64,000 bases of DNA from Promethearchaeota archaeon (GTDB lineage Archaea > Asgardarchaeota > Lokiarchaeia > Sigyniarchaeales > SOKP01). The notes under the pieces were generated by a model, which was given only the letters and a program-made list of their open reading frames with translations, was not told the DNA's origin and ran no database searches. Of this stretch, positions 1 through 16,500 are shown piece by piece. Where the stretch lies: contig JAHPZI010000028.1 in NCBI GenBank assembly GCA_019058295.1, forward strand, positions 32,001-96,000, read 5' to 3'. Position 1 is the first letter of the stretch, and every line of letters starts with the position of its first letter. A program made the translations under genes and the position numbers.

Positions 1-1
1 T

Positions 2-826
2 TTTATTGTGATTTTAATTGGTCTTTTATTTGATTATGCTGGTAGAATTTTTCCACTAAATTATATTATTTTAGCAATAGCATTGGCCACGTATATACAG
101 ATCTTCATATTTAGGTTTTTTGATTTCCCTCTTGCGATTATATTTAGTGCTTTTATCGCTGCTCTTATGTGCGTTCCTCTCCTAATAGGAGATACAATTA
201 CGCGGGAAAACTTTGGAAGTACATTATCCATTTCTTATTTTATCATTATCATAGGGATGATTGTTGGTTTAAGCTTTAATATGTTTATAACAGAGTCATT
301 ACAATCCAGTTCTTTTAGAGAAATTTTTCTAATGGGGACAATATTTATGTTTTGTATCATCTGTTTATTATTTTTAGTATATATGCGTGAGACCTTACCT
401 CGGAAAGAGCAGGCGTGGAAAAATTTTTTATATCATCTCTACATTATTCATGATTCTGGAATATTACTTTACGAATATGCTTTTATAAAAGAAAAAAAGA
501 CAGATGGTAGTAGCGTTGATTCTGATTTGAGGGCAGGAGGGATAATTGGCGTAAGATCTATTTTGAAAGAAATAGTACAAGGAGAAGAAGAAGTTAAAAC
601 GATTGATAGTGGGGATAGGGTTCTTATAATTACCCATTCTAACAAAGTTATTTTTGCTCTTATAGTAAAAGAGGAATTAATTGTATTAAGAAAAAAAATG
701 GAAGCCTTAATCGAAGATTTTAATAAGGAATTTGGAGAACTAATTAATGAGATTAGTTCAATTGGCGCCGCTATACACAAATTTAAACCAACTGAACATA
801 TTGTTTTGAAATATTTTGGAAATTAA
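2..826 (+). CDS. Multi-pass membrane protein with C-terminal cytoplasmic longin/roadblock-like domain (5' truncated by window edge)
   Basis: Frame is open from the window start. Several hydrophobic helices are followed by LYIIHDSGILLY...DSDLRAGGIIGVRSILKEI...IDSGD, the tail typical of Asgard membrane proteins. Confidence 0.7.
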   Translation, partial: FIVILIGLLFDYAGRIFPLNYIILAIALATYIQIFIFRFFDFPLAIIFSAFIAALMCVPLLIGDTITRENFGSTLSISYFIIIIGMIVGLSFNMFITESLQSSSFREIFLMGTIFMFCIICLLFLVYMRETLPRKEQAWKNFLYHLYIIHDSGILLYEYAFIKEKKTDGSSVDSDLRAGGIIGVRSILKEIVQGEEEVKTIDSGDRVLIITHSNKVIFALIVKEELIVLRKKMEALIEDFNKEFGELINEISSIGAAIHKFKPTEHIVLKYFGN

Positions 827-871
827 ATACTGTTATATCGAAATTAAAATTATTCTTTTTATTTTTTAAGA

Positions 872-1714
872 ATGGATGTCCATAAGATAAAAAAAAAAGT
901 ATTAAGAGATTTAAGACAAGAAATCCCAAATTTAATTGAAGAAATAGATGATTTTTCTCTTACTCGTCTTAGTAGCAAAAAGAATATAGTTTATGAATTG
1001 ATATTTGATAAAAAATCAGATAAATTACCTAAAGAAGTAATCCTCAAACTTTTCCGAACTGACTATGCTGAAAAAGAATATAACGCTTTAATCAAACTAG
1101 AAAAACAGGGGCTACCAATCCCTAAAGTATTATACTTTAAAAAACCTTATTTAATCCTTAAAAAACTCGAAGGTGTTAATCTTTGCGATTTTATAAATGA
1201 TAACTTAATAAATATAAGCACTATAGATGAATTAGATTTAGAGATCCGTGATAAAATTATAGTTAGCGTAAAGAAATTGGCCGAATGGATAGCTAATTTG
1301 CATAGTCAAAACATAATTACTAAGAAAAAGTCACTTGAGATTATTGTATTTAACAAAGGAGATACTCGATTAAGAGATTTTATATACAACATAACAAAAA
1401 ATGTTATTTATGGTATTGATTTTGAAGAATCATATGACGGAAATTTCTTAGACGATTTAGCTTGGATTTGCTGCTCATTATTAGATACTAATCCCGGAAT
1501 TTTCGAAATACCTGAACCAAAACATAAAATGGAGCTAATTAACTACTTTTTAAAGGAGTATTTCCGTATCAATAAGAAATTTTTGTTCTCATTTAATTAT
1601 TTCGCCGAAAAATTAATTGATTATCTAAACATCGTAATTGAAAGGAGAGCTATAGAATTAAGTCCTGTTAGAAAAAATGTTATTCTGAGAAATATATCTA
1701 AAAAATATACCTAA
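872..1714 (+). CDS. Protein-kinase-like fold phosphotransferase (APH/RIO/Bud32-like)
   Basis: VILKLF (beta3 Lys), EKEY, IPKVLY, KGDTRLRDFI catalytic-loop-like motif, GIDFEES (DFE), DLAW. Confidence 0.7.
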   Translation: MDVHKIKKKVLRDLRQEIPNLIEEIDDFSLTRLSSKKNIVYELIFDKKSDKLPKEVILKLFRTDYAEKEYNALIKLEKQGLPIPKVLYFKKPYLILKKLEGVNLCDFINDNLINISTIDELDLEIRDKIIVSVKKLAEWIANLHSQNIITKKKSLEIIVFNKGDTRLRDFIYNITKNVIYGIDFEESYDGNFLDDLAWICCSLLDTNPGIFEIPEPKHKMELINYFLKEYFRINKKFLFSFNYFAEKLIDYLNIVIERRAIELSPVRKNVILRNISKKYT

Positions 1715-1829
1715 TAAATTATAAAAAAGCCTAATACATAATATTTTTAAGTAGCACACCGTTAGGTATTATAAAACATATCGAATAAAAACATAAATCG
1801 TAATATAAAATAAAAAAATTGATTAAAAA

Positions 1830-3074
1830 ATGAGCGATATAGATAAAAAAGATGCTGCTATAGGATTATTAGTTATTGGATTAGTTGCTTTAGCAGGATG
1901 GGTTGGATTTCTTTATGCAAGTCCCGTTACTAAGACGAAAACAGAAGAAGAAGAGGAAACTATATATATTACAACTACAACAAAAACTATAGAGGAAACA
2001 GGTTTACCAGATGATTGGGGTTTAGCAGAATTGGATGCTTCCTTTTCAGTATTTAATGAAACGGGTGGAGAGATATCAGTAAAAATGTCTGATATTTTAA
2101 ATGGTATTTCCCTCTATTATAATCAAGAAGCTGACCCATTGGGTCGTAATACACAAGAGTATAAATACGAGTATATGGAATTACGAACGGTTGACGATCC
2201 ATTATCAGGTCGAACTTTTACTGGTGTAAACATTTTAGATGTATTGGAATCTGCTGGTGTATTTTTTGCTTGGAATATCTCTTGTAAAACAAATAATGAG
2301 GATTTATATCCCAATACTTATTTTAATGTGTCAACTGGAGATATAATTAATTTGGATAGTAAACCATTATATATTCCAACAATTGTTGCTATTGCTGCTG
2401 ATGGATTATGGTTACCTGACCTTGGTTATGGAAATTTTTCAATTATCCAAGGACTATCATCACAATCTATTTATGATCTTAAGGAAATAAGGACTATGTC
2501 AGAATGGGAAGTAGACATAATTGTTGATGGGATTGTAGAATATCAAGTTAATAGGACAAATATTATTGATCCTCATTATCCAGATGGATGGCATTGGGAA
2601 TATCATAAGAATTTTACAGGTTCTGATAATGCATATATGGGTGGTAGAATGACATATAATCGTACATTTTGGGGAGTAAATATGTCATATATAATAAACC
2701 AAACTAGTGCTAAAAATCTTAATTATACTATGAGGGCTATATCTGTAGATGGTTGGTTATCTGATACATATAATAATACTGATATTAACTCTGGTTTAGT
2801 TTATCCAGAACACTATGGATATGTTAATTACACTGATAATCCTCCTACAGGGGTTCCTTTACCAAAAACAGATCTGTTAATAACATTGGTTTATATGGAA
2901 CAAAAATTCTTCGAATACGGTTTATTCGCATCTGATCCAATATGGGATAAGGGATATTACGATGGATATGATGGAGGAGCATTTCATATTGTAATCCCTG
3001 GAATGACAAAAAGTAAACATCCAGGATATGTAAAAAGTATCGAAATAACTACTTATGCTGGTCCAATTCCTTAA
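1830..3074 (+). CDS. Membrane-anchored extracellular protein with two molybdopterin-binding (Oxidored_molyb/sulfite-oxidase-fold)-like repeats
   Basis: N-terminal TM helix, Thr/Glu-rich linker and many N-x-S/T sequons. Repeat motifs FTGVNILDVLE and FWGVNMSYII, RAISVDGW, GGAFHIVIPG...YVKSIEI. Confidence 0.6.
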   Translation: MSDIDKKDAAIGLLVIGLVALAGWVGFLYASPVTKTKTEEEEETIYITTTTKTIEETGLPDDWGLAELDASFSVFNETGGEISVKMSDILNGISLYYNQEADPLGRNTQEYKYEYMELRTVDDPLSGRTFTGVNILDVLESAGVFFAWNISCKTNNEDLYPNTYFNVSTGDIINLDSKPLYIPTIVAIAADGLWLPDLGYGNFSIIQGLSSQSIYDLKEIRTMSEWEVDIIVDGIVEYQVNRTNIIDPHYPDGWHWEYHKNFTGSDNAYMGGRMTYNRTFWGVNMSYIINQTSAKNLNYTMRAISVDGWLSDTYNNTDINSGLVYPEHYGYVNYTDNPPTGVPLPKTDLLITLVYMEQKFFEYGLFASDPIWDKGYYDGYDGGAFHIVIPGMTKSKHPGYVKSIEITTYAGPIP

Positions 3075-3079
3075 AAAAA

Positions 3080-3091
3080 TTTTTTTTTTTT
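3080..3091 (+). terminator. Oligo-T archaeal terminator candidate
   Basis: Run of about 12 T a few nt after the stop at 3074. Confidence 0.5.
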
Positions 3092-3107
3092 ATTCAACAA
3101 AATAATA

Positions 3108-3115
3108 TTTATATA
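3108..3115 (+). promoter_or_regulatory. TATA box (TTTATATA) for a probably leaderless operon 3137-8046
   Basis: TTTATATA preceded by an A-rich BRE-like stretch, ending about 21 nt before ATG 3137. Confidence 0.45.
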
Positions 3116-3136
3116 TAGAAAATAATAATAAAAAAA

Positions 3137-4087
3137 ATGAAAAAAGTTAGATATAACCTTGTTTTTTCATTAATTTTGCTTATTTTTATAGTTAGTTGGA
3201 AAATTCCATTTTCATTTTCATATCCTGGAGATGGGGATTGTAAAAAATATCATGGAATTACGAACATTAATGCTAATTTTATTGAGAATTCTCAAATTGT
3301 TTTGGATGGTGTTTCAAACGAATCTTTTTGGAATGATATTAAAATTAATAATGGATTTATCACAATTCCCACAGCTAATATTCTTGGCAATCCTGGAGAT
3401 GAAATAATTGAAGTTAAATTAATTTTTGTTTTAAATAATCAATATATTTATATTTATTGTGAGTGGAATGATACTACTACCAAGCCAAGTGGTATAAACA
3501 TTTTTGATGGTATTTATTTCTGTTGGAATATAAATACTCCTAATTTTACTTCATATTATCCAAATGATATGAATACAGAGCATATGGGAGGAGGAATGAT
3601 AGACTCCTGGGGAACTGAATTTTTTCTTGGAGATTCTCATGAAAATCATTCAAGTTTTATCGGTAGTGACGGATGTATTCAAGATGATGGTTGGCATTTC
3701 GGAGAAAGTGGTGATATTGAAATTGGTTTTTCATATATTGTTGATCAATCCTATTCTATTGAGATTAAAAGAAAATTAATAACAGACGACGAATATGATA
3801 TTCAATTTTATAAAGGAAAATCATATCTCTTTAATATTGGATTATATAATGATGGATATGGTATAGATCATACGATTTCCTGGATTTATAGGTTAAATAT
3901 ATTAAGTGAGGATAATCCTATTGAGAATGATGATGATGATGATAAATCGAGTAAAAATGAAACACAACTCAATATCGGATTAATTATAATAATAGGTACT
4001 ATATCAATAATTTTAATTATAGCGATAATTACATATTACAAATCTAAAATTACTCAAAATAAAACTAGTATAAAAAATGCAGACTAG
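3137..4087 (+). CDS. Secreted, C-terminally anchored DOMON-like / ethylbenzene-dehydrogenase-gamma-like (putative heme b) protein
   Basis: Signal peptide; IVLDG..NESFW, YIYIYCEWNDTT, DGIYFCW, HMGGG, SIEIKRKLITDDEYDIQF, DHTIS; acidic linker, TM helix and basic tail. Confidence 0.6.
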   Translation: MKKVRYNLVFSLILLIFIVSWKIPFSFSYPGDGDCKKYHGITNINANFIENSQIVLDGVSNESFWNDIKINNGFITIPTANILGNPGDEIIEVKLIFVLNNQYIYIYCEWNDTTTKPSGINIFDGIYFCWNINTPNFTSYYPNDMNTEHMGGGMIDSWGTEFFLGDSHENHSSFIGSDGCIQDDGWHFGESGDIEIGFSYIVDQSYSIEIKRKLITDDEYDIQFYKGKSYLFNIGLYNDGYGIDHTISWIYRLNILSEDNPIENDDDDDKSSKNETQLNIGLIIIIGTISIILIIAIITYYKSKITQNKTSIKNAD

Positions 4088-4679
4088 AAATTTTAATATT
4101 TTAATCGCAGCAATATGTGTTGGTTTAACAACATTTTGGCTTACTGCATATAATATTGTAAGATTAGGAATAGATCCTATTAAATATATTCAACATAATA
4201 CTTCAGAGGCTTTTTCAGATGAAGAGTCAGAAGATTCAAAAACATTAATTACTATTAAAGGAAAAGTTAAAGAAGATTTACGTCTTTCATTGTCTGATCT
4301 CAAATCAGATAAGTATAGACAGGTAACAGATGATTTTGACTTTAAAAATTCATATGGCACAGAATGGACTACGGAATATACAGGAACGACTCTTTGGAGC
4401 ATATTAGAAGCTGAGGGGATATTAGAATCTGATGATTTAACATTTATATTTATTGGACAAGATGGATATGAATCTCCAGTAGCTCTATCAATTGAAGATA
4501 TTGCCAAGAAATATGAAAATAAAGTAATATTAGCTTATGAGGTAGAAGGTCAACCTTTAACTGATGATAATGGTCCTGTAAGATCTATAATAGACAGAGA
4601 AGTTATACAATACCTTGAACCAAATCACTATAATTCTCAGTTTGCAGTAAAAGATTTGAAATATGTTGAGATCAAATAG
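4077..4679 (+). CDS. Membrane-anchored molybdopterin-binding-fold protein lacking the Mo-ligating Cys
   Basis: LITIKGKV..LRLSLSDL, EYTGTTLWSILE, FIGQDGY, VILAYEVEGQPL..NGPVRSII, VKDLKYVEI. The only Cys lies in the N-terminal TM. Confidence 0.75.
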   Translation: MQTRNFNILIAAICVGLTTFWLTAYNIVRLGIDPIKYIQHNTSEAFSDEESEDSKTLITIKGKVKEDLRLSLSDLKSDKYRQVTDDFDFKNSYGTEWTTEYTGTTLWSILEAEGILESDDLTFIFIGQDGYESPVALSIEDIAKKYENKVILAYEVEGQPLTDDNGPVRSIIDREVIQYLEPNHYNSQFAVKDLKYVEIK

Positions 4680-4694
4680 GAGTGATATATTAAA

Positions 4695-5333
4695 ATGGAT
4701 GATTATAAACAAAATAGTGTCCAAAAAGAAGAGAATTCAAATCAATTAGAAGAATTTCGAGAAACGGGAATGAGTTTAGAGAAATCTAATAGACTTTCTA
4801 CTTTAGATTTAATCTACTCCGCAATATTAGGAGTTATGGGAGGATTTATCTCCAGTCTCATACCATTTAGTATTTTAATCAAAGTATGGTATCCTCTAAC
4901 GGGAGGTACTCAATTAATATCCGGACATCATGTTATGTGGGCCACTATAGTATATGGTTTGACACGTAAAAAACAAAATATCATGGTAACTATGTCGATA
5001 AAGGGATTGCTAGAATTTTTATTAGGAGATCCATGGGGGATACTCATTATTTTTGTTAATCTAATGGAAGGTGTATGTTTGGTATTAGGGTTCTTTTTTA
5101 TGGAAAAAATTGGAGAAGGTGAGACTAAACTGGGATGGGGCATTGCGGGTGGTTTCGGTAATTTTTTCCAAGCACCATTTTTTTGGATACTTAATCAGAG
5201 ATTTCATTTACATTGGACATTATGGCTCTTGGCTTTTATATTCGCATTTGTTTCTGGCATATTAATAACGGGAGTATTAGGGAAAGTGATTAAAGAATAT
5301 TTGATTAAAGCCGGGGTTCCGACAACATTTTGA
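4695..5333 (+). CDS. ECF transporter substrate-binding S component
   Basis: About 200 aa with roughly six TM helices, STLDLIYSAILGVMGG helix 1 and a LIKAGV C-terminus; lies directly upstream of the A and T components. Confidence 0.8.
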   Translation: MDDYKQNSVQKEENSNQLEEFRETGMSLEKSNRLSTLDLIYSAILGVMGGFISSLIPFSILIKVWYPLTGGTQLISGHHVMWATIVYGLTRKKQNIMVTMSIKGLLEFLLGDPWGILIIFVNLMEGVCLVLGFFFMEKIGEGETKLGWGIAGGFGNFFQAPFFWILNQRFHLHWTLWLLAFIFAFVSGILITGVLGKVIKEYLIKAGVPTTF

Positions 5334-5340
5334 ATAGGAG

Positions 5341-7161
5341 TTGAACCTTAATATTTCCCGTGATAAAACAGCTCTCTCTTTTAAGAACTTCTCTTTTATT
5401 TATGGTACAGACAAATTAAAAATCCCATCAGTTTCAAATATAACTTTTGATTTGAAAGAAGGAGATGTTTTAATATTAGCTGGTGCAAGTGGAAGTGGTA
5501 AATCTACCCTATCTTATGCTATGAACGGGATTATACCTTGGAGACTAAAGGGTCTAATGAAAGGAGACGTTGAAGTCTTTGGAAAAAGTATTTGGGACTA
5601 TAATTTCATGGAATTAAGTAAAATAGTTAGTTTAGTTAAGCAAAATCCATTAGAACAATTAGTTACATTTACTGTGAAGGATGAGATCGCATTTGGACTT
5701 GAAAACCTAAAATATCCAATTGAAGAAATTGAAAAAAAAATCGAAGAAATTACTAAATTTTTAGAAATTGATCATTTATTAGAAAGGGATATCGATCAAT
5801 TAAGTGGAGGACAAAAGCAGCTTATAATCTTAGCATCATTTTTAGTAATGGAGCCTAAAATATTAATTTTGGATGAGCCGATTGCCTTCTTAGATCAACA
5901 TTCAGAGAGTTTATTATTAAACCGATTAAAGAAACTGATTCAATCACCCAATTATAACCTAACTCTCATAATTATTGAACATAGATTATCAAGGGTTGTA
6001 AATTTAGCGAATAAAATTATAGTATTGTCCGATGATGGAGAAGTTATTCTAAAAGGTTCAGTTTCTGAAATTTTAAAAGATAGATTTGATGAATTAAAGC
6101 TATGTAATGTGAGGGTTCCTTGGATAACAAATATCTATAGTGAATATAGAAAGATTACTACTAGAAATGCAGATGATTTTGGCGTGCCAACTAATTTCCA
6201 ACAACTCTTGAAAATTCCTGAAAATTTAGAAACAGAACAATTAAAACAAATATATCAGCTTCTAATCGATATAGAAATAAGACCAAAACATTTAGAGAAA
6301 TTAGAATTATATGAGGAAAAAATAGAGTTCGATGAAATCTATATTGAGACCTTAAAAAGGCTCTCTGAAAATAATAGAAATCAATCCATTTTCAATCAAG
6401 CTGAAGAAAATATTATTTTAGAAACGAGAGACTTATCATTCGAATATCCAAATACGGGAATTAATGCTATTAATAATTTATCTATTAAAATACATCAAGG
6501 AGATTTCATAGGTTTAGTTGGACCAAATGGTTCAGGAAAGACAACCTTATTATATTTATTAGCAAATCTTTATAAACCTACATCAGGAGAGATATTCTTT
6601 AACAATCAGAACCTCACAGAATTCAATCCTTATGAGTATGCTCTTCATATTGGATTTATATTTCAAAATCCTGAAAATATGATTTTTAAGCATACCCTTA
6701 GAGATGAGATTTTATATGGTCCTAAAAATTTTGGCATTCTGAAGGAAATTAATGAAGAATATCTTTCTAAATTAATTTGTTTAATTGGAGAAAATGATCC
6801 CTCAAAAAATCCTTTTAATCTAAGTTGGGGTCAAAAAAGAAGATTAAACCTTAGCTCCATATTTGTATACAATCCTGAAATAATTCTATTAGATGAACCT
6901 TTCATTGGGCAAGATCAGCGGACAATTGATTCAATTATAGAAACCCTATTTATTGAAAATAAAAGAGGAAAGACAATTATTATCTCTTCTCATGATTATC
7001 ATTTACTTTTAAAATATACTAAAAGAATAATCGAGCTGAACAAAGATGGAACTCTGAAAGACTATGATACAAAAGATACTTATTTTTTAAAGCATCAAAA
7101 TCTAGGGCCAGTCATTTTTTTGAATAAAATTAAAGAATTAATAGGAGAGCGTAATATTTAA
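5341..7161 (+). CDS. ECF transporter fused double ATPase (A-A')
   Basis: Two ABC cassettes: GASGSGKS / LSGGQKQ / ILDEP and GPNGSGKT / LSWGQKRR / LLDEP, with QNP Q-loops. TTG start. Confidence 0.92.
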   Translation: MNLNISRDKTALSFKNFSFIYGTDKLKIPSVSNITFDLKEGDVLILAGASGSGKSTLSYAMNGIIPWRLKGLMKGDVEVFGKSIWDYNFMELSKIVSLVKQNPLEQLVTFTVKDEIAFGLENLKYPIEEIEKKIEEITKFLEIDHLLERDIDQLSGGQKQLIILASFLVMEPKILILDEPIAFLDQHSESLLLNRLKKLIQSPNYNLTLIIIEHRLSRVVNLANKIIVLSDDGEVILKGSVSEILKDRFDELKLCNVRVPWITNIYSEYRKITTRNADDFGVPTNFQQLLKIPENLETEQLKQIYQLLIDIEIRPKHLEKLELYEEKIEFDEIYIETLKRLSENNRNQSIFNQAEENIILETRDLSFEYPNTGINAINNLSIKIHQGDFIGLVGPNGSGKTTLLYLLANLYKPTSGEIFFNNQNLTEFNPYEYALHIGFIFQNPENMIFKHTLRDEILYGPKNFGILKEINEEYLSKLICLIGENDPSKNPFNLSWGQKRRLNLSSIFVYNPEIILLDEPFIGQDQRTIDSIIETLFIENKRGKTIIISSHDYHLLLKYTKRIIELNKDGTLKDYDTKDTYFLKHQNLGPVIFLNKIKELIGERNI

Positions 7162-8046
7162 ATGTCAAGAAAGAATAAAAGTTTGGATCATAAGAGGCTG
7201 ATGTTTGCCTATTTCCCAGGAAATTCAATCTTTCATAAATTAAATCCTCTTTCAAAATTAATATTTCTCTTACTCCTTACTATAATTATATTACTAGTTA
7301 GGAGCTTAATATTCATGGCAATGGTTTCGTTATTTGTTATTTTTTTAGCTTTAATAAGCGGAATTTCCTTAAAGAATCTTTATTTGAAACTAAGATTTAT
7401 AGTCTCAATCCTAATAGTTAGTGTAGTTTTGAATATATTTTTTAATGCTATTCCCAGTGAAGAAGAAGTTATCTTGTTTTACTTATTCGGTATTGAATTT
7501 CTACCTATTAGAAAATTAGCCATATATTATGCCTTTAGAGCTTTTTTTCTCGTCTTAACATTGTTTACTTCTTCAATTATCTACTCCAATACAACTAATA
7601 TGCGAGATTTTGTATATGCATTGATGAGATTAAAAATCCCTTATCGATTTTGTTATGCGTTTATGGTTGGGATAAGATATATTCCTTTAATAGAACAAGA
7701 GGCAAAAACGATATCATTAGCCCAAAGAGCAAGGGGTTTTGGTTATGAGAAAGTAAATAGTATAAAGAAAGCTTATAATTGGATCTCTGAACGTTTACTT
7801 ATTACCTTAGTTTCAATACTTAGAAAAGCTCATACTACATCTATTTCAATGGAAAATAGATGTTTTGGCATTTATAAAGATCGGACTAATTTAATTAAAA
7901 TTAGATTTAAAGCAATAGATATTGCTTTTATTATAATTTTTGGATTTCTTTTCACTTTAATTTTATTTTATTTATTTCAATTGCTCCCGTTACCACAATT
8001 CCCTTCTCTTTATCACATGTATCTAAAGTATTTTAATATTTTTTAG
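7162..8046 (+). CDS. ECF transporter transmembrane T component (EcfT/CbiQ family)
   Basis: HKLNPLSKL, RYIPLIEQEAKTI.LAQRARG and SMENRCF coupling-helix motifs. Confidence 0.92.
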   Translation: MSRKNKSLDHKRLMFAYFPGNSIFHKLNPLSKLIFLLLLTIIILLVRSLIFMAMVSLFVIFLALISGISLKNLYLKLRFIVSILIVSVVLNIFFNAIPSEEEVILFYLFGIEFLPIRKLAIYYAFRAFFLVLTLFTSSIIYSNTTNMRDFVYALMRLKIPYRFCYAFMVGIRYIPLIEQEAKTISLAQRARGFGYEKVNSIKKAYNWISERLLITLVSILRKAHTTSISMENRCFGIYKDRTNLIKIRFKAIDIAFIIIFGFLFTLILFYLFQLLPLPQFPSLYHMYLKYFNIF

Positions 8047-8862
8047 AAGTTCTAAATAACCACCATACTTTTCTCGCGTAATTGAATATTTTTTAGTAGT
8101 AGAACCCCATCTTATATTATTTCGAATATTATGTAAAAAGCCCTTTGCATTAATAATCCTAGTACCCCCAACTACATTAATTCCCCTTTTAAAGAGAGGA
8201 TCGGGTAAAAATCCAGCAGTGGGCCCTATAATCGAAGTTTTTTCTGCATTTGAGCAAAATTTTAGAATATCATCGATTGTATCGTTCAATATTGTGGTAC
8301 TAGTTAATAATACTTTATTGCAGTCTTCTAAATTAGTGGGATCTAAAGTAACTACCCAGTTCTTTTCTTTTTTCACTAAATCCTCTTTTAATTCAATAAT
8401 AACTAATTTATTCCCTCTTTCCTCAATCTTTTTAACAAGCGGTGGAAAAAAACCGACCATTCCCACTATATCTTTTTCATTTATGTTTAATAAACCTAAA
8501 GAATCTGAAGTATGATCAAAGGAAAAATTAGTTTCTTTAAAAATAAATTGACTAATTGCATTAATAGCTCCCATACTTAAGGATTTTTTATACAAATTAT
8601 TGGATGTAAAATCCTTTACTAAATCCATTGGAGAGGTATCTTTATATTCTTTTGAATCGATTTTAAGAATTTGTTTTTTAACTTCTTGAGTTAATGCTAT
8701 AAAAAAAATACCGATTGAGTTATCTTCTAATATTACTGCTGCAAAATTTGATTTTTTTGCTTTCTCATCAACAGTTGGAACAACAATTTCTTTAATTAAT
8801 GGAATTTGAACTCTATTAGCAATATCATTTAAGATTACTTGATATTCGGAAGATATTGTCAT
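8023..8862 (-). CDS. DUF364 family protein (enolase-N-like plus Rossmann-like; putative metal/pterin chelation)
   Basis: SLSMGAINAISQ, VGMVGFFPP, IIELK, LLTSTTILNDTIDDIL, IIGPTAGFLPDPLFKRGINVVGG. Confidence 0.85.
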   Translation of the reverse strand: MTISSEYQVILNDIANRVQIPLIKEIVVPTVDEKAKKSNFAAVILEDNSIGIFFIALTQEVKKQILKIDSKEYKDTSPMDLVKDFTSNNLYKKSLSMGAINAISQFIFKETNFSFDHTSDSLGLLNINEKDIVGMVGFFPPLVKKIEERGNKLVIIELKEDLVKKEKNWVVTLDPTNLEDCNKVLLTSTTILNDTIDDILKFCSNAEKTSIIGPTAGFLPDPLFKRGINVVGGTRIINAKGFLHNIRNNIRWGSTTKKYSITREKYGGYLELLKNIKIL

Positions 8863-8907
8863 GTGTAAATTAATTAATTGTAAAATTTAAAAGAGGTTCT
8901 AATAACT

Positions 8908-11097
8908 TTATTGATATGGTTTAATAACGTGAATAACATCATCAAAATCGATTCCAAGCTCTTTGACTAACTCAATTGTTGGGCAACCAAACGCATTCCA
9001 ACCACGTTTTTGATACACAGCCTCTTGAAGTTTAAAATACTGAATCTCTCTATATTTTCGCAAAATTTTCATTTTTTCTTCGGTAGATTTACCTTCGATA
9101 TCTATATCGAGCTCCTTTAATTGTTCATCATATCTTTTTTGGCGACTTTCATATTCCATTTTTGTTACTGGTCCCATTGCTCTATAAGGTATATTGGAAT
9201 CATGTTCGCTCAAACCTTTACCTTGACGAATGTTAAAAATCCTTTGTAAATTATAGACACGTTCAGACATTCGGATAAGATCATCAGGATCTGCATTGAT
9301 ACCTGTTACTGCCGTATAATAATCTGCATACCATTGAACATGTTGTGGAATTTTCGCTTGTAATAATTCCCCTGCCATTTTAATCGGCAAATCAAAATTC
9401 GATGGAGGAGGCACATCATTCCAAGGAAGTTTACAGAGCCCACATAACCCAAACCAGGTTCTCCATAAAGGAAACCAATATAATGCTTTAGCTTTATCTT
9501 CAAATGTTGGAATTGAGTGGCGTACAACATCTTCAAAAATCAACCATGCTTCATCATGTTGAGGCCCTTTGTTTGTGAAACCATAGCCTCCTTGTTGGGT
9601 GAGTGATTCCTTGGTAACATATTCAGAAAACTCAAGTCCTTTATGCTCCATTCCAATATCTTGTAAAAAATTAGGATCTCCACTATATTTCTCAGCGAAT
9701 AGTTTTTTTAATCGTTTTATTCCTTGACCAACGACCAGACCAAAACCTTCTCCTCGTGCCATTTGATGGATTAATTCAATTGCAGCTTCAGCATTTCCAA
9801 AATGCAACTCAAGTCCGCCTGTAATTTCTTTATTTATAATTCCCTCCTCATAACACTCCATAACAAAGGCAATTCCTGTTCCTACACTTATAGTATCTAA
9901 ACCATAGGTATCACAATAAAAATTAGCTTCCATTACCCATTGAGGATCCCATACACCCCAATTTGATCCACATCCAGCAATAGTTTCATATTCGGGTCCA
10001 TCAACAATTACTTTTTCTCCTTTAAACTGTCCGGTCATAACTTTATATTTTTCAACCCAATGACTACAGCTAACGCTACACCCAAAAAAGCATCCATCTG
10101 ATCCTTTTCCCGTACGTTCCCCGAAAAGATCAGCCCATACTTGGCGTTTATAAGGGATTTCTTTATCTTTAATTTCACGATGTTGACCAAATCGAAAATT
10201 TTCAGTTGGGAGTAAATCTGTAATATTCATAATATCTGGAAGGTATCCCGTTCCTACAATTCTCATTTGATTCATAGAAGGATCGTATGTTATTATTTCT
10301 TTTTTGTGTTTCCTCCCGATCTCAATTAATTTTTCTGGATCAGCAGGATTATTTTTTTTAACATCATATGGAGGAGATCGACATATTAATGCTTTAATTC
10401 TTTTGTTAGCAAATACACTCCCAATTCCTCCCCTTCCTGCTTGTTTACAAGAAGCCCATTTCCTTTTTCGTGCATACCACGAAGAATTTAGCATCCCCCA
10501 TCTTGTGTGCCTTGCGGCAGGTCCTGAACTAACAACAGAAACCATCTGCTTTTCTTTTTCCGTAGATTCTTTCGCAAATTTTTCTGTTAATTGTTGAGTA
10601 AGAAGATGTGAATAGTCTGAAAGATTGTCTGATTCTTCAACCCTTATAATTTGAACCATGTGATCTTGACCATTAATAAATATCAACACATCATTTTCGG
10701 TTTTTCCTTGAATTTCAAGGACATCAAAACCAGAACATTTTAGATAGGGTCCAAAATGCCCTCCTACATTGCTGTCTATCACAATTCCGGTCAGAGGGGA
10801 GATTGTTGTAACTATAGATTTGCCTCCTCCAGGATAATATGTACTTGCCCCTAAAGGACCTGTTGCCCAACAGATTTCATTTTCAGGGTCATCCCATTTA
10901 ACAATTCTGTCTTTCGGTAAGCTATTCCACATAAGCCAGAGATCAAAACCCCTCCCACCGATGAATTTTTCTTTCATTTCATCGGTTATAGGTTTAATTT
11001 TAATTTCGTTTGTTGTTAAATTTATGTATAAAGTTCGATTTGTATATCCCCGAACCATGTCTTGATGTTCATACTTGAGTTCTGCTAAAATCAACAC
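8908..11097 (-). CDS. aor: Aldehyde:ferredoxin oxidoreductase family (tungstopterin)
   Basis: FIGGRG, DPENEI, ISPLTG..DSNVGG, QAGRGGIG, GCFFGCSVSC, GPEYET, CDTYGLDTIS, GLCGLCKLPW. Confidence 0.93.
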   Translation of the reverse strand: MLILAELKYEHQDMVRGYTNRTLYINLTTNEIKIKPITDEMKEKFIGGRGFDLWLMWNSLPKDRIVKWDDPENEICWATGPLGASTYYPGGGKSIVTTISPLTGIVIDSNVGGHFGPYLKCSGFDVLEIQGKTENDVLIFINGQDHMVQIIRVEESDNLSDYSHLLTQQLTEKFAKESTEKEKQMVSVVSSGPAARHTRWGMLNSSWYARKRKWASCKQAGRGGIGSVFANKRIKALICRSPPYDVKKNNPADPEKLIEIGRKHKKEIITYDPSMNQMRIVGTGYLPDIMNITDLLPTENFRFGQHREIKDKEIPYKRQVWADLFGERTGKGSDGCFFGCSVSCSHWVEKYKVMTGQFKGEKVIVDGPEYETIAGCGSNWGVWDPQWVMEANFYCDTYGLDTISVGTGIAFVMECYEEGIINKEITGGLELHFGNAEAAIELIHQMARGEGFGLVVGQGIKRLKKLFAEKYSGDPNFLQDIGMEHKGLEFSEYVTKESLTQQGGYGFTNKGPQHDEAWLIFEDVVRHSIPTFEDKAKALYWFPLWRTWFGLCGLCKLPWNDVPPPSNFDLPIKMAGELLQAKIPQHVQWYADYYTAVTGINADPDDLIRMSERVYNLQRIFNIRQGKGLSEHDSNIPYRAMGPVTKMEYESRQKRYDEQLKELDIDIEGKSTEEKMKILRKYREIQYFKLQEAVYQKRGWNAFGCPTIELVKELGIDFDDVIHVIKPYQ

Positions 11098-11246
11098 ATA
11101 TCACATCGATTTTAAACTTGAATATTATATTTAGGATATTACATTGAAATTCTTTAATTAAATTAAGTTTAAGGTTTCATTATCTTTTTTTGAATCTCTT
11201 GAAAATTTACAAAAAAAATTTTTAGAGATGATTCATTTTACGTTAT

Positions 11247-12116
11247 ATGGTTGATACAGCCACTAAAGTTCGAGAAATACAGAAAAAATTTAATATCATT
11301 GGAAGATCAGAGGAACTAAAAAAAATAATATTGGCACGTGTAGTTGGAAAGAACATATTAATTGAAGGTGAAGTTGGAGTTGGTAAAACAACCTTAGCAC
11401 AGGCAGTTTCCAACTACTTTGATTCAAATTTTTATCGAATAGACTGTTCAGAAGAAATTTTGACCCATAGTTTAGTAGGTCATTGGGATCCTCCACTTGT
11501 TATTGCAAAAGGATATGAAGAGGATTCTTACGTTTATGGACCGCTTGCCTTAGCCATGTCGAAAGGGGGCTGTTTATTTATTAATGAAATTAATAGAATG
11601 CCCGAAAGCACTCAAAATGCGTTACTAACTTCATTAGACGAGAAAATTCTTGATATCCCCAAATTAAAAACCATTAAAGCAAACAATGAATTTTTTGTTG
11701 TTGCAACCTTAAATCCTTCGGCACATGTTGGAGTAACGGCATTAGGAGAAGCTTTAAAAGATAGATTCATCTGGATTAAATTAGATTATCAAAAACCAGA
11801 AGAAGAAATCGAAATTATTAAAAAGGAAGTTGATATTGATGATGATATTGATAATAAAATCATACAGATATCACAAGAAATAGTACAAGCAACGAGAGAT
11901 AACACATCTATACGTAGAGGAAGTTCAATTAGAGGTGCCATTGATTTAACAGCATTAATAACTCAATATGATAACAATACCAGCACTAAAAACTGGATTG
12001 AAGCTGCAATAATGGCGCTTTATAATAAAATTGAAATGGAAGATGGTGTAGCAAAATCGAAAAAAGAAATTATCACTGAAATCGTTTTATCTATATTAAA
12101 TGACTCGGATTTTTAG
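11247..12116 (+). CDS. MoxR/CoxD-like AAA+ ATPase (short, unshifted product)
   Basis: Walker A GEVGVGKTT, Walker B LFINEINR, TLNP, ALKDRF, SSIRGAID. Ends GAT TTT TAG. Confidence 0.92.
   Translation: MVDTATKVREIQKKFNIIGRSEELKKIILARVVGKNILIEGEVGVGKTTLAQAVSNYFDSNFYRIDCSEEILTHSLVGHWDPPLVIAKGYEEDSYVYGPLALAMSKGGCLFINEINRMPESTQNALLTSLDEKILDIPKLKTIKANNEFFVVATLNPSAHVGVTALGEALKDRFIWIKLDYQKPEEEIEIIKKEVDIDDDIDNKIIQISQEIVQATRDNTSIRRGSSIRGAIDLTALITQYDNNTSTKNWIEAAIMALYNKIEMEDGVAKSKKEIITEIVLSILNDSDF
12107..12116 (+). other. Candidate -1 programmed ribosomal frameshift site G_GAT_TTT followed by TAG
   Basis: The heptamer lies in the only overlap (12104-12116) between the AAA frame and the -1 frame that continues into the vWA ORF. 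Confidence 0.65.
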
Positions 12117-13231
12117 TAATCGATGATTTCTCAGAGGAAGAATCCAATGAGATTGAGAGAAAGCGGCTTAATGTTAGGCTTACGGAGAGCCCTCCTGATA
12201 AAGAAATCCTAAGATTAGAAATAATTCGGAGCAAAAAGAAAAAACCTGATTACTATCGCCACTTAGCAAATACATTGGATTATAAGCAAATAAAAGAAAT
12301 GACTTATTTAGCAATCCAATATAAAAATCTTGAAGCTATTATGGGTATGCTTAAGTCAAACGTTTACGCAGCGACGGATGCTTTAGACTGCGAAGATGGG
12401 GTAAAATTTTTTACCGAAAAATCTAAAGAATCAAATATGGTTATGCCGGAAATATATTTCTTTATCAGACGACCGATTTCGCCAAAATATAAAAATATTT
12501 TTAGAAGGCTTGCCCGTCAGAGTATTTTGAAAACTTCCTTGAAAATCACTAGCAGAGGTATTAAAGGAACATTGAAAAAGATTTTCCCTTATTATGAAAT
12601 TGGAATGCCTGAGTTTGATCTGGATGAGACCATTCAACATAATCCGCTAAAAATTTATGAAAAAAGCCTTTCTCATAAAGATATTTATGGAATTAAAAGG
12701 CAACAGCAAAAAAGGAATGTGGTTTTAATTCTTGATACGAGTGGCAGTATGTATGGAAAAACATTATTAAATGCCGCTCTTACAACATCTGTTCTAGCCT
12801 ATAATATGGAAAAGGAAAATTATGGTATAGTCCTTTTCAATTCAACAGCTATGACATTAAAAAGAATTAATGATAAAAAATCAATTATCTCTATTATCGA
12901 TGAAATTCTAGATTCTGAGGCTGTAGGATTTACTAACATCCAAATTGGTTTAGAGAAAGGTTTAAAACAATTAAATCAAGTTAAAGAAAATAGAAAACAT
13001 AAATTTGGTATTTTAATTACTGATGGAAATTATAATCGTGGAGAAAATCCTCTTACTATCTCAAAAAAATATCCTAAATTACATGTAATAGGTATGCCTG
13101 CAGAGAATGACGCTGATAGAGGTCTTGATACTTGTCGAGAACTTGCCAAAGCTGGAAAAGGAAAATTTTTTGCCGTAACCGATTATAAAGAAATTCCGAG
13201 AGCGCTCATAAATTTATTGTCTCAAACTTAA
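12113..13231 (+). CDS. vWA (MIDAS) domain protein, CoxE/ChlD-C-like; probably the C-terminal part of a frameshift fusion (track start TTG 12275)
   Basis: EFDLDETI; MIDAS elements LILDTSGSM, FTNI and ITDG. The frame is open back to 12104 with no ATG/GTG/TTG before 12275. Confidence 0.85.
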   Translation, partial: LVIDDFSEEESNEIERKRLNVRLTESPPDKEILRLEIIRSKKKKPDYYRHLANTLDYKQIKEMTYLAIQYKNLEAIMGMLKSNVYAATDALDCEDGVKFFTEKSKESNMVMPEIYFFIRRPISPKYKNIFRRLARQSILKTSLKITSRGIKGTLKKIFPYYEIGMPEFDLDETIQHNPLKIYEKSLSHKDIYGIKRQQQKRNVVLILDTSGSMYGKTLLNAALTTSVLAYNMEKENYGIVLFNSTAMTLKRINDKKSIISIIDEILDSEAVGFTNIQIGLEKGLKQLNQVKENRKHKFGILITDGNYNRGENPLTISKKYPKLHVIGMPAENDADRGLDTCRELAKAGKGKFFAVTDYKEIPRALINLLSQT

Positions 13232-13542
13232 TTTAATTTTAAATAAAGAAATGTCATTGAATTTGAAAAATCAAAATGATTTTAATCCTATTTTTGTTGA
13301 TATTTTATAATTACAAATAATCTATTAAAAGTAATTAGGCTATCAGAACCTAATAATTTGTAATAACTTAGATGAGTAAATTGGTAGGATAAAACAAAAA
13401 ATAAACAAATTTAATTGAAAGTTTTTAACAAATTTTTGCAATTAGAACAATATTTGAAATAATATAAATAGAATATCTAACATTTTTATTATAATTTAAA
13501 TCTTTTTTAGAAATTTAACAAAAAATTAGGTATATTGAAATT

Positions 13543-16500
13543 ATGATGAAAAAAAGTAATAAAATAAAAATTTTAGCGGTTTTACTTTTTTCTATGATTG
13601 TTTTTACATTATTTATTCAAGTGAGTTTTCTTTCGCTCTTGAATAAAGACGAAACTCAGGAACAACCAATTCAAAAGGCTAAAGAAATAAAATCTAGTGC
13701 TGTTATAACAGAATTCTTATATATAAACCAAGAGGATTACAATAATAATTGGACCGTCGTAAAAGATAAGTATTCATTTATTACAGGTTCCGGAACACTA
13801 GGAGATCCTTATCTGATAAGTAATACTGAATTTGATGGTCAAAATATCCATGGAGCTATTACAATAAATAACTCAAAAAATGTGAACTTTAAAATTAAAA
13901 ATTGCCGATTTTATAACATTGGGTCATCAGATTCCCCAAGTGCAGCAATACAAATAATAGATTCCCGGAATGGAACAATTACAGGATGTGATTTTTCTAG
14001 TTCCGATGACGGCAATATTGGAATAAAAATGTTTAATGGAACTTGGAAAATGACAATTGCTAATAATAATTTTACTAATTTCAAATACGCAATTTATGCC
14101 GAATCAAGTTATCAAAATATTATTTCAGGAAATAATATCGATGAAAATAATGTTGGAATTTACTTAAAATTATGGTGTAATATGAATGAGATTTATAATA
14201 ATTATCTTAGTGAGAATTCTATTGCGGGTATATTTTTAACTGATAGTTGCTGGAATAATAAAATTTCAGGAAATATCATTAATGATAATGTTGTTTTCGG
14301 GGTACTCATAGCATTCTCTGGTAATACCAAAATTTACGGAAACAATTCAATTAATAATAATGGTTATGGAATATATATGACAGGATCCGATTGGAATAAT
14401 ATCGAAAATAATACAATTATATCAAATAATAACGATGGCGTTTATATATCTGGTTCTTGGTGGAACAATTTTACAAGAAATCTAATAAAGGATAATGTAG
14501 AAGTTGGTGTACATATCGATGAATCTAAGGGTGATAGTCAAAATAATTACATATACGAGAATGATTTTATTAATAATGGAGAACACGCGATTGATTACGA
14601 TTATTCAAATAATTGGAATAAAAATAATGTAGGCAATAAGTGGGATAATTATACCCAATTAACTGGTGGGAAGGATGCCGATGATGATGGTATCGGAGAT
14701 GCTCCATATAATTTCACTGGTGGTCGTGATTATTATCCAATCTATAACGATGGACTTGACGCTGGACCTTATCCTGGTGTGATTTGGATAGATGAAAATA
14801 GTCCACAATGGAATTGGACATGGGCAAAAGATAGATATTGGTTCACTGGAGGGGATGGGGGGGTTTTAAATCCTTATACAATTTCTCCTAACATATTCTG
14901 GGAGGGTAAAATTGATGGACTTGGACAATATTCATGTATTACTCTCGTTAATACTCATGGACCATATTTTATTCTCGAGGATTTAACTCTCTACAATTCG
15001 GGATCAGCTGGAATAAATATAACTGATTCTGGAGTTGGAAAAATCATTAATTGTAATAGTTCTAACAATGGAGATGGAATATTCCTCGATGAAGCGCAGT
15101 TTATCAATATTTCACAATGTATTCTCAATGATAATTCCCGTGCCGGCATATTTGTAACCAATGATTCTATGAACAATCTTGCTTGGGATAATTCTCTTTC
15201 GAATAATGATTATGGTATATATATAGAAGATGATAGTGATAATAATAATTTCACGTCTAATATTATCTTAAATAGCGATCTTTATGGAGCCTATGTTTCT
15301 GGTGCTAAAGTAGATGTTAATGATACTGTGTTTTATGAAAATACATTTCAAAATAAACTAACAGGCGATAATGCATATGATGATGGACCTGATACAATAT
15401 GGTATCTTAATGAAAGGGGCAATAGTTGGGATGATTATCCTGATGCCCCTATATATGGAAAAGATGCCGATGATGATGGTATTGGAGATAAATCTTATGA
15501 TAAAATTTATGGCAGTGCTAATTCGATTGATAAATACCCTATTTATTTCGATGATTTAGATGAGTATGCTCTATATATTGATGATAATGCAACTGGTCCA
15601 GGCGCACATAATTGGACTTGGGCAAGTAAAAGATTATTTATTACAGGTAATGGCTCAGCAATCGATCCATATCTCATCAAAGATGTGAGTTTTAATGGAA
15701 GTAAGTTATGGGATAACAGTTGGCCAAAATGCGGTATAACAATTAAAAATTCTGCTGAGTATAATATATATTTTAAAATCGAGAATTGCACTATTTATGA
15801 CGCCATAGATGCAGGGATCTATTTAAATAACGCATCAAGAGGAACAATAATCAATAATTCTATCGATATTTCTAATAATCCGAATTTAAAAATTGGGATT
15901 CATTTAACAAATTCAGCTAATTTAAACAATATATCTTACAACACTCTGAATTCTTTTGAGAAAGGACTGTTTATGAATTATTCCTGTTACAGTAATTATA
16001 TTAAGGGAAATTTTATGGAATGGAACGACTGGGGAATTATTTTAGAACGTTGGTGTTCAAGTAACGTACTTATTAACAATACATTATCTAATAACAATTT
16101 TGCTGGATTATTTTTCAATAATTCATGTTACGTGAATAATGTAACTCAGTGTACAATTAGTAATAATTTAGATGGAATACGATTTAGGAAAAGTTGTAAG
16201 AGTAATGAGATCTTTGAGAATGATATTAAACGTAATAATCAATTTGATAGTAAAGGTGTACTTATATTAGATAATGATTCTGCATATAATATCTTTTACG
16301 AAAATAATTTTACTGGAAACACTATACATGTTCTTGATGATGGGACTTACAATAGATGGAATACAACAGTCTATGGAAATCAAATTGGAAATATTTGGGG
16401 AAATTATACCGAAATCCCTGGCCATGCAGATGATGATGACGATGGGATCGGAGACGTACCATACCCAATACGTAATTCGACAGGAGCTTGGATAAACAAC

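Follow-up and report, generated by a model that had tools for sequence, protein, structure and literature searches.

A candidate ECF importer for salvage of the pyranopterin cofactor of tungsten and molybdenum enzymes in Asgard archaea

Why should an archaeon display relatives of sulfite oxidase that lack the metal-binding cysteine on its surface, and encode them together with an energy-coupling factor (ECF) transporter? The question is raised by a stretch of 64,000 nucleotides from Promethearchaeota archaeon (assembly GCA_019058295.1, contig JAHPZI010000028.1, positions 32,001 to 96,000 of the forward strand), here called the window, in which the genes of three surface proteins, p414, p316 and p200, are followed by those of an S component, a fused A-A' ATPase and a T component, a set of genes that we call the cassette. 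The window has a G+C content of about 29% and belongs to an assembly of 3.2 Mb in 30 contigs with a completeness of 79%; the relatives of its proteins and all related loci bear Lokiarchaeota/Promethearchaeota labels. On the basis of sequence comparisons and structure models, the operon at 1830-8046 probably encodes a transporter that salvages the pyranopterin (molybdopterin) cofactor needed by tungsten and molybdenum enzymes.

The six plus-strand genes between 1830 and 8046 are one operon (Table 1), with successive spacings of 62 nt, an 11-nt overlap, 15, 7 and 0 nt. An original prediction, made from the letters of this DNA, had placed the open reading frames at the positions found here and had described the run 3137-8046 as tightly coupled, in agreement with the overlap and the three short gaps. 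The dedicated ECF module that it proposed was recovered in full, with matches to PF09819, a double ABC_tran and CbiQ, and the DUF364 and AOR genes are both on the minus strand and converge on the operon as described, the MoxR-vWA pair coming after them.

Both p414 and p200 start with a single hydrophobic helix preceded by a few charged residues, and p316 shows a signal-like N-terminus and a C-terminal helix after an acidic linker. Taken together with the helices of the structure models, these features indicate that the three proteins should be membrane-anchored with their bulk outside the cell. The sulfite oxidase (SUOX) fold, which binds the molybdenum cofactor (Moco), was recognized in p200 by PF00174 and by a Foldseek search of the model, whose best solved match was PruR (7kp2, E 3.8e-8, TM score 0.75 on target); SorA, sulfite oxidase and YedY came next. 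The domain encoded at 4077 had been called free of cysteine and its ectodomain indeed is, the only cysteine of p200 residing in the N-terminal membrane helix. No Mo-ligand cysteine is conserved on the hairpin in the p200 ectodomain, which has no conserved cysteine at all (28 homologues), or in p414, in which no cysteine is invariant (17 homologues). A profile alignment of p200 with plant sulfite oxidase showed the 'QCAGNRR' ligand segment to be shortened, with valine or isoleucine at the cysteine position, and a conserved D-G-Y motif (D129, Y131) has, in terms of sequence spacing alone, the same spacing as N102-x-Y104 of PruR.

The first domain of p414 has the same fold. Residues 64-225 of its model were superimposed by VIA on PruR 7kom with a Z score of 13.3 (118 residues, root mean square deviation 2.4 Å), and the superposition on chicken sulfite oxidase had a Z score of 13.1; Foldseek agreed with the SUOX/PruR fold and the matching Atlas rows bear PF00174. 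No Pfam match was obtained for p414 itself, and PF00174 was reached by three of 17 orthologues (best E 1.3e-4). The second half, from about residue 225 to 407, shows SUOX-like motifs and a match with a Z score of 8.4 to a model entry only, and no clear PF00174 match for residues 225-407 was found in the Atlas or VIA searches, so that a second SUOX-like domain in the p414 model is suggestive. Two of the three SUOX-type domains originally claimed, those of p200 and of p414 64-225, were therefore demonstrated and the third is suggestive only. The profiles of p200 and p414 were not significantly related by hhalign or hmmsearch, and structure alone connects the two proteins. Tandem SUOX-like arrays are clear in relatives of 370 aa (family f12), 347 aa (f2) and 480 aa (genome G174), and p316 groups with archaeal clusters of EB_dh-domain proteins (Atlas feature score 0.95). 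On contig C99 of G174 (3659-4270 and 7107-8369) an S match containing two in-frame stops, TGA and TAA, was observed with the 480-aa reading frame and its three SUOX-like repeats nearby; this S gene may be a decaying copy.

The comparison with PF00174 proposed in the original prediction thus returned a SUOX fold minus the Mo-ligand cysteine, with PruR as its nearest neighbour. PruR, with structures from Agrobacterium, Vibrio and Klebsiella (7kou, 7kom, 7kp2, 7rkb), resides in the periplasm and is non-catalytic. This SUOX-fold protein has no ligand cysteine and a truncated Cys hairpin, and it binds pterins at the Moco-homologous site, stacked between a conserved Tyr and a Trp and held by an Asn hydrogen bond (PMC11194511). 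Its authors consider the pocket too short for Moco (PMC11194511).

The transporter genes have the make-up of a group I ECF system, in which S, T (CbiQ/EcfT) and two ECF-type ATPase domains are encoded together, and the A-A' protein passes both ECF ATPase equivalogs (TIGR04521, 333 bits with a cut-off of 330; TIGR04520, 315.3 bits with a cut-off of 315). Orthologues of the S component are 67-80% identical and its wider family is small, with 89 representatives in 1.84 billion proteins. Two metagenomic relatives, P0102 (759 aa) and P0144 (717 aa), have S joined to the double ATPase in a single S-A-A' protein. The similarity of S to the YkoE structure 5EDL is marginal (E 0.005, 19.9 bits) within the same Pfam family, PF09819. 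This membership of the YkoE family, together with a PruR-like truncated pocket that suits small pterins, leaves room for a different substrate, either a pterin other than Moco (a folate or methanopterin precursor, or one of the neopterin type) or thiamine/hydroxymethylpyrimidine (HMP) as in YkoEDC. We regard such a substrate as quite unlikely, as the resemblance to YkoE is marginal, no Rfam match of any kind, a thiamine pyrophosphate (TPP) riboswitch included, was found in window 1-14000, and ThiC, which also served as a control for general cofactor poverty, occurs in 42 of 46 family genomes irrespective of cassette state. Moreover, the distribution, neighbours and riboswitch described below point specifically to the Moco pathway. 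The thiamine/HMP clade with a matching regulon, named beforehand as the outcome contrary to the prediction, was not seen, and a thiamine/HMP importer was rejected on these grounds.

A pattern scan with the S alignment, covering one genome per species in about 185,000 species, yielded 45 loci, all from Asgard archaea, in which the order p414-(p316)-p200-S-AA'-T is retained. The p200 gene lies directly 5' of S in 44 loci, p414 is present in 38 and p316 in 33, being absent from the other 12; A-A' was found in 41 and T in 38, the shortfall being mostly due to loci at contig ends. Strong S and strong p200 matches also fall in the same genomes of the genome sample described below. The predicted linkage of surface proteins with the ECF module is consequently conserved, both in these loci and as S-SUOX fusions in other lineages. 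The linkage claimed for AOR and DUF364 did not hold, as they adjoin the cassette in one and four of the 45 loci respectively and their adjacency is specific to the genus. DUF364 was found in three of five cassette-only vs four of five biosynthesis-only genomes and was rejected as a part of the system, since it occurs in both kinds of genome and rarely adjoins. In 16 of the 45 loci a kinase-like gene immediately precedes the cassette, and in 22 MoxR-vWA lies 3' of the cassette.

In a second form of the cassette, type II (families f7, f12, f22 and f24), the S component has an additional, seventh helix and a SUOX domain at its C-terminus, so that PF09819 and PF00174 are found in one protein. Upstream of this S lies a tandem SUOX protein or a Metallophos-SUOX fusion, often with the kinase-like gene too. 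The type II fusions have an invariant cysteine (C239 of L024:6978-8042, minus strand) at the start of the ectodomain, just past the extra helix and not at the Mo-ligand position. A third arrangement, T-MobB-PF00174-S, occurs in family f27, and S-SUOX fusions of about 455 aa are found on contigs with bacterial-looking neighbours, beside A-A', T, an NPP-type phosphodiesterase and small PF00174 genes. Other neighbours of the cassettes are a moa operon, MoaD-like and MoaB-like genes, TupABC after T, MobB and an MsrPQ-like Moco enzyme. The latter is exemplified by L041:9510-10559 (also in L034, L046, L064 and L073), directly 3' of T, whose 349-aa product combines PF00174 (136 bits, with an 'LQC' ligand cysteine) and a DUF4079/cytochrome b561-like membrane domain in a single MsrP-MsrQ-like polypeptide, with the MoaD-like and MoaB-like genes next.

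The fusions bear on whether the surface proteins belong to the transporter at all. They might instead constitute a redox or sensing module, combining SUOX domains with DOMON haem in a PruR-like signalling role, that merely lies beside an unrelated ECF transporter, since PruR is a signalling protein (PMC11194511) and EB_dh/DOMON domains carry haem b beside Mo enzymes. This explanation appears very improbable, because the SUOX domain is covalently fused to S in several lineages and S and p200 co-occur strictly, no sensor partner such as DcpA accompanies the proteins in the 45 loci, and p316 is dispensable, as its absence from a number of loci shows.

The substrate is also indicated by a comparison with Moco biosynthesis in 201 evenly sampled Asgard genomes, where MoaC or MoeA_N was taken as the mark of biosynthesis and a type I or type II cassette as the mark of salvage. 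AOR genes are present in 197 of these genomes. The cassette without biosynthesis was found in 72 and biosynthesis without the cassette in 96, with 3 genomes having both and 30 neither, which corresponds to an odds ratio of 0.013 (Fisher p 3.6e-26, uncorrected for relatedness) and bears out the predicted anticorrelation with moaA/moaC. The same split recurs within families, given here as cassette-only, biosynthesis-only, both and neither: 19, 16, 2 and 4 in f1; 2, 1, 0 and 0 in f2; 25, 16, 1 and 1 in f7; 17, 2, 0 and 0 in f12; and 8, 1, 0 and 1 in f22. At least 10 genera contain cassette-only as well as biosynthesis-only members, so that the distribution must have arisen through many independent changes.

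The genome of the window falls on the cassette side, as no match to MoaC, MoaE, MoCF_biosynth, MoeA_N or the MoaA C-domain was found in its 79% complete assembly, which has at least nine AOR-family and three PF00384 matches. MoaA, MoaC, MoaE and MoeA were likewise not found in relatives of 99-100% completeness that retain PF00384 enzymes. Assembly gaps are not the explanation, since a completeness of 99-100% is common among the cassette-only genomes and three closed, single-contig genomes (G205, G211 and G216) have S and no MoaC. The Tup-type tungstate binding protein follows the same division, being present in 60 of the 96 biosynthesis-only vs one of the 72 cassette-only genomes. Many of the TupA-like matches in f1 (G198, G171, G008, G150, G113, G109, G049, G132 and G168) contain one in-frame stop in their span, which probably sits upstream of the true start. 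Two further markers were discarded: PF13531 (ModA/WtpA-type) as a sign of metal uptake gave patchy, weak and uninformative matches, and PF00994 did not discriminate because nearly every genome has a copy of about 265 aa outside the moa loci, which we take to be CinA-like, though biosynthesis genomes have 3-5 copies.

The exchange between the two states can be followed at a single locus. In G144, a genome of the same genus with 98% completeness, the order is TupA-TupB-TupC(TOBE)-moaC-moaA-moaD-moaE-[AOR, -]-moeA-mogA-moeA-MoxR-vWA, and at the same place the window has kinase-like-p414-p316-p200-S-AA'-T-[DUF364, AOR, -]-MoxR-vWA, the minus sign marking genes on the opposite strand. The AOR inside the moa operon of G144 is 86% identical to that of the window, and in G113 and G008 the same DUF166/kinase-like flank borders the biosynthesis form on the left. 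The shared flanks and client enzyme therefore indicate one island that holds either tungstate uptake and pterin synthesis or the ECF cassette.

A regulatory link was observed in bacterial relatives. The Moco/tungsten cofactor (Wco) riboswitch RF01055 lies 60-110 nt 5' of the S-SUOX gene in L076/L077, L084, L085 and L086, with 69-82 bits against a gathering score of 36; in L075 a PadR gene stands in its place. RF01055 riboswitches commonly control molybdate and tungstate transporters, and their position upstream of the bacterial S genes is thus also what would be expected if the cassette were an ECF-type importer of tungstate or molybdate whose SUOX domains bind the oxyanion and which replaces TupABC only. 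The near absence of TupA from cassette genomes is in line with this explanation, as is the cassette taking the TupABC slot at loci that keep a moa operon. Nevertheless we judge a metal importer unlikely. The 72 cassette genomes without MoaC and MoeA (and without MoaA where tested) keep many AOR and PF00384 enzymes, for which the metal alone would be insufficient. Furthermore, the closest solved fold is that of a pterin binder, PruR, and the surface phosphoesterases (Metallophos, NPP) and MobB that accompany related cassettes suggest that the substrate is an organic phosphate ester or a dinucleotide.

Salvage of the pterin cofactor was therefore retained as the interpretation; the original prediction had proposed it, and the outcomes on fold, linkage and moa anticorrelation support it. 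The comparative evidence as a whole comprises the folds and the loss of the cysteine, the ECF parts, the conserved linkage and the fusions, a distribution that nearly excludes Moco biosynthesis and TupA, the exchange at one locus and the riboswitches of bacterial relatives. From it we infer the ligand, its transfer to S by p200, inward transport and what p316 and MoxR-vWA do, as follows. The cysteine-less SUOX folds of p414 and p200 would capture the cofactor or a close derivative outside the cell, with p316 (EB_dh/DOMON-like) as a putative accessory, and p200 would pass the ligand to its dedicated S component. Import would be powered by T and the fused A-A' ATPase through the usual ECF mechanism. 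Inside the cell, the cofactor would load apo-AOR and other pterin enzymes, perhaps aided by MoxR-vWA, which is present in both forms of the island, 3' of the moa operon in the biosynthesis type, and resembles CoxD/CoxE and chelatase motors. The AOR of the window is a likely client of the imported cofactor. That TupA and MoeA are lost together suggests that the cofactor enters with its metal bound, although the cells may have other tungstate transporters. Metallophos and NPP surface phosphoesterases, from two unrelated superfamilies, recur, as does the kinase-like gene; as a hypothesis only, we suggest that extracellular enzymes cleave the guanine or cytosine dinucleotide forms of the cofactor (MGD/MCD) or remove the phosphate of the pterin, which would be phosphorylated again in the cytoplasm. 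The kinase-like gene (window 872-1714; L024:9698-10483; L083:15764-16600) flanks type I and type II cassettes and biosynthesis-type islands as well. Export of Moco to surface enzymes was rejected, as cassette-only genomes have nothing to export, and import of cyclic pyranopterin monophosphate (cPMP) was considered unlikely, as MoaE was not found in the window's own genome and MoeA was not found in any cassette-only genome.

Several observations weigh against a salvage importer for the cofactor. The Cys hairpin is truncated as in PruR and the pocket may be too short for intact Moco; by analogy with PruR, a pterin that is smaller or has been processed may be the ligand. With MoeA absent, insertion of tungsten into a metal-free pterin is left without explanation. 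Three sampled genomes and three of the 45 loci have both the cassette and biosynthesis, and at these loci the cassette, in the TupABC slot, is followed by the moa operon, an arrangement that a metal importer fits too. Riboswitch control alone also fits metal uptake. Thirty genomes have neither cassette nor biosynthesis and yet encode AOR, 19 of them in family f5, so that another route must exist. Finally, most sampled genomes are metagenome-assembled genomes (MAGs) and relatives are not independent samples. In one f5 genome (G133, L078:8722-13716) a weakly SUOX-like gene of 337 aa was observed beside two ABC_membrane+ABC_tran half-transporters, and these genes may serve the same purpose in another way.

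We know of no prokaryotic importer for Moco or Wco; to our knowledge these cofactors are generally regarded as too labile for exchange, and prokaryotes that have Mo or W enzymes are all assumed to synthesize them. On balance we lean towards the view that a large share of Asgard archaea (the 72 cassette-only genomes of 201, closed ones included) are unable to make the W/Mo pterin cofactor and scavenge it from other organisms through the ECF importer, that the island switches repeatedly between making the cofactor and taking it up, even within genera, that related riboswitch-controlled systems have the same function in anaerobic bacteria, and that this is a first case of prokaryotic Moco/Wco uptake, with the cofactor as a traded public good of anoxic communities. 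If true, a new class of substrates and a receptor principle based on tethered or fused binding domains would be added to ECF transporters, and the ability of AOR-rich Asgard archaea to do without moa genes would be explained. It would also imply a hard metabolic dependency on partners in the closest archaeal relatives of eukaryotes, with a bearing on syntrophy models and cultivation, alter the reading of a 'missing Moco pathway' in metabolic reconstructions of MAGs, and provide a handle for moving Moco-type compounds across membranes.

The coordinates of the operon and its neighbours are collected in Table 1. Further 3' of MoxR-vWA, the window encodes a NosD/right-handed beta-helix repeat protein of 1649 aa (13543-18492), and in L001, too, the pair is followed by a similar gene.

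Table 1. Genes of the candidate cofactor importer and its surroundings, in positions of the window (pLDDT, predicted local distance difference test).
Feature	Position	Strand	Remarks
RIO/APH-like kinase-fold protein, 280 aa	872..1714	+	RIO1 22.5 bits; APH weak
p414, N-terminally anchored surface protein, 414 aa	1830..3074	+	domain 1 Cys-less SUOX/PruR-like fold; model pLDDT 76
p316, secreted EB_dh/DOMON-like protein with C-terminal membrane anchor, 316 aa	3137..4087	+	PF09459 weak, E 0.0039
p200, N-terminally anchored single SUOX-fold domain, 200 aa	4077..4679	+	PF00174 44 bits vs cut-off 24; model pLDDT 86
ECF S component	4695..5333	+	PF09819 39.8 bits; YkoE distant relative
Fused ECF A-A' ATPase	5341..7161	+	two ABC_tran domains
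ECF T component, CbiQ family	7162..8046	+	PF02361 87.9 bits; start abuts A-A' stop
DUF364 protein, neighbour only	8023..8862	-	PF04016 116 bits
AOR-family tungstopterin enzyme	8908..11097	-	AFOR_N + AFOR_C
MoxR AAA+ / vWA (CoxE-like) pair	11247..13231	+	AAA_5/AAA_3, VWA, VWA_CoxE

Full-text searches of the literature returned no prokaryotic importer of Moco or molybdopterin, whether of the ECF type or another, and no description of the cassette, which can be compared with four known systems. In Bacillus subtilis, the dedicated (group I) ECF transporter YkoEDC, which takes up thiamine/HMP, likewise brings together a PF09819 S component, a fused A-A' and a CbiQ-type T; the cassette differs in the marginal similarity of its S, in having neither a TPP riboswitch nor YkoF, in its SUOX-fold partners or fusions and in genomic and regulatory ties to Moco rather than thiamine. 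The haem ECF transporter LhaSTA of Staphylococcus lugdunensis works with Isd surface proteins, and its S component is thought to receive the ligand from anchored capture proteins, as proposed here for the cassette; its S family, its capture fold (NEAT) and its ligand are different.

PruR is the best structural match of p200, as it is of domain 1 of p414, and shares with p200 the small extracytoplasmic, cysteine-less SUOX fold with a truncated hairpin. However, PruR is soluble and has Pro-Trp at the cysteine position, where the p200 profile has V/I, and its partner is the cyclic di-GMP enzyme DcpA in a signalling pathway, whereas no GGDEF/EAL gene was found in the 45 cassette loci and the cassette proteins are archaeal and either membrane-anchored or fused to an ECF S component. 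In terms of physiology, a parallel is Caenorhabditis elegans, which takes up ready-made Moco from its diet and so obtains it from other organisms; the worm is an animal, no ECF system is involved, and the abstracts of the two studies name no transporter (PMC7849362, PMC9793310). The cassette described here is probably an undescribed microbial route for the uptake of ready-made cofactor.

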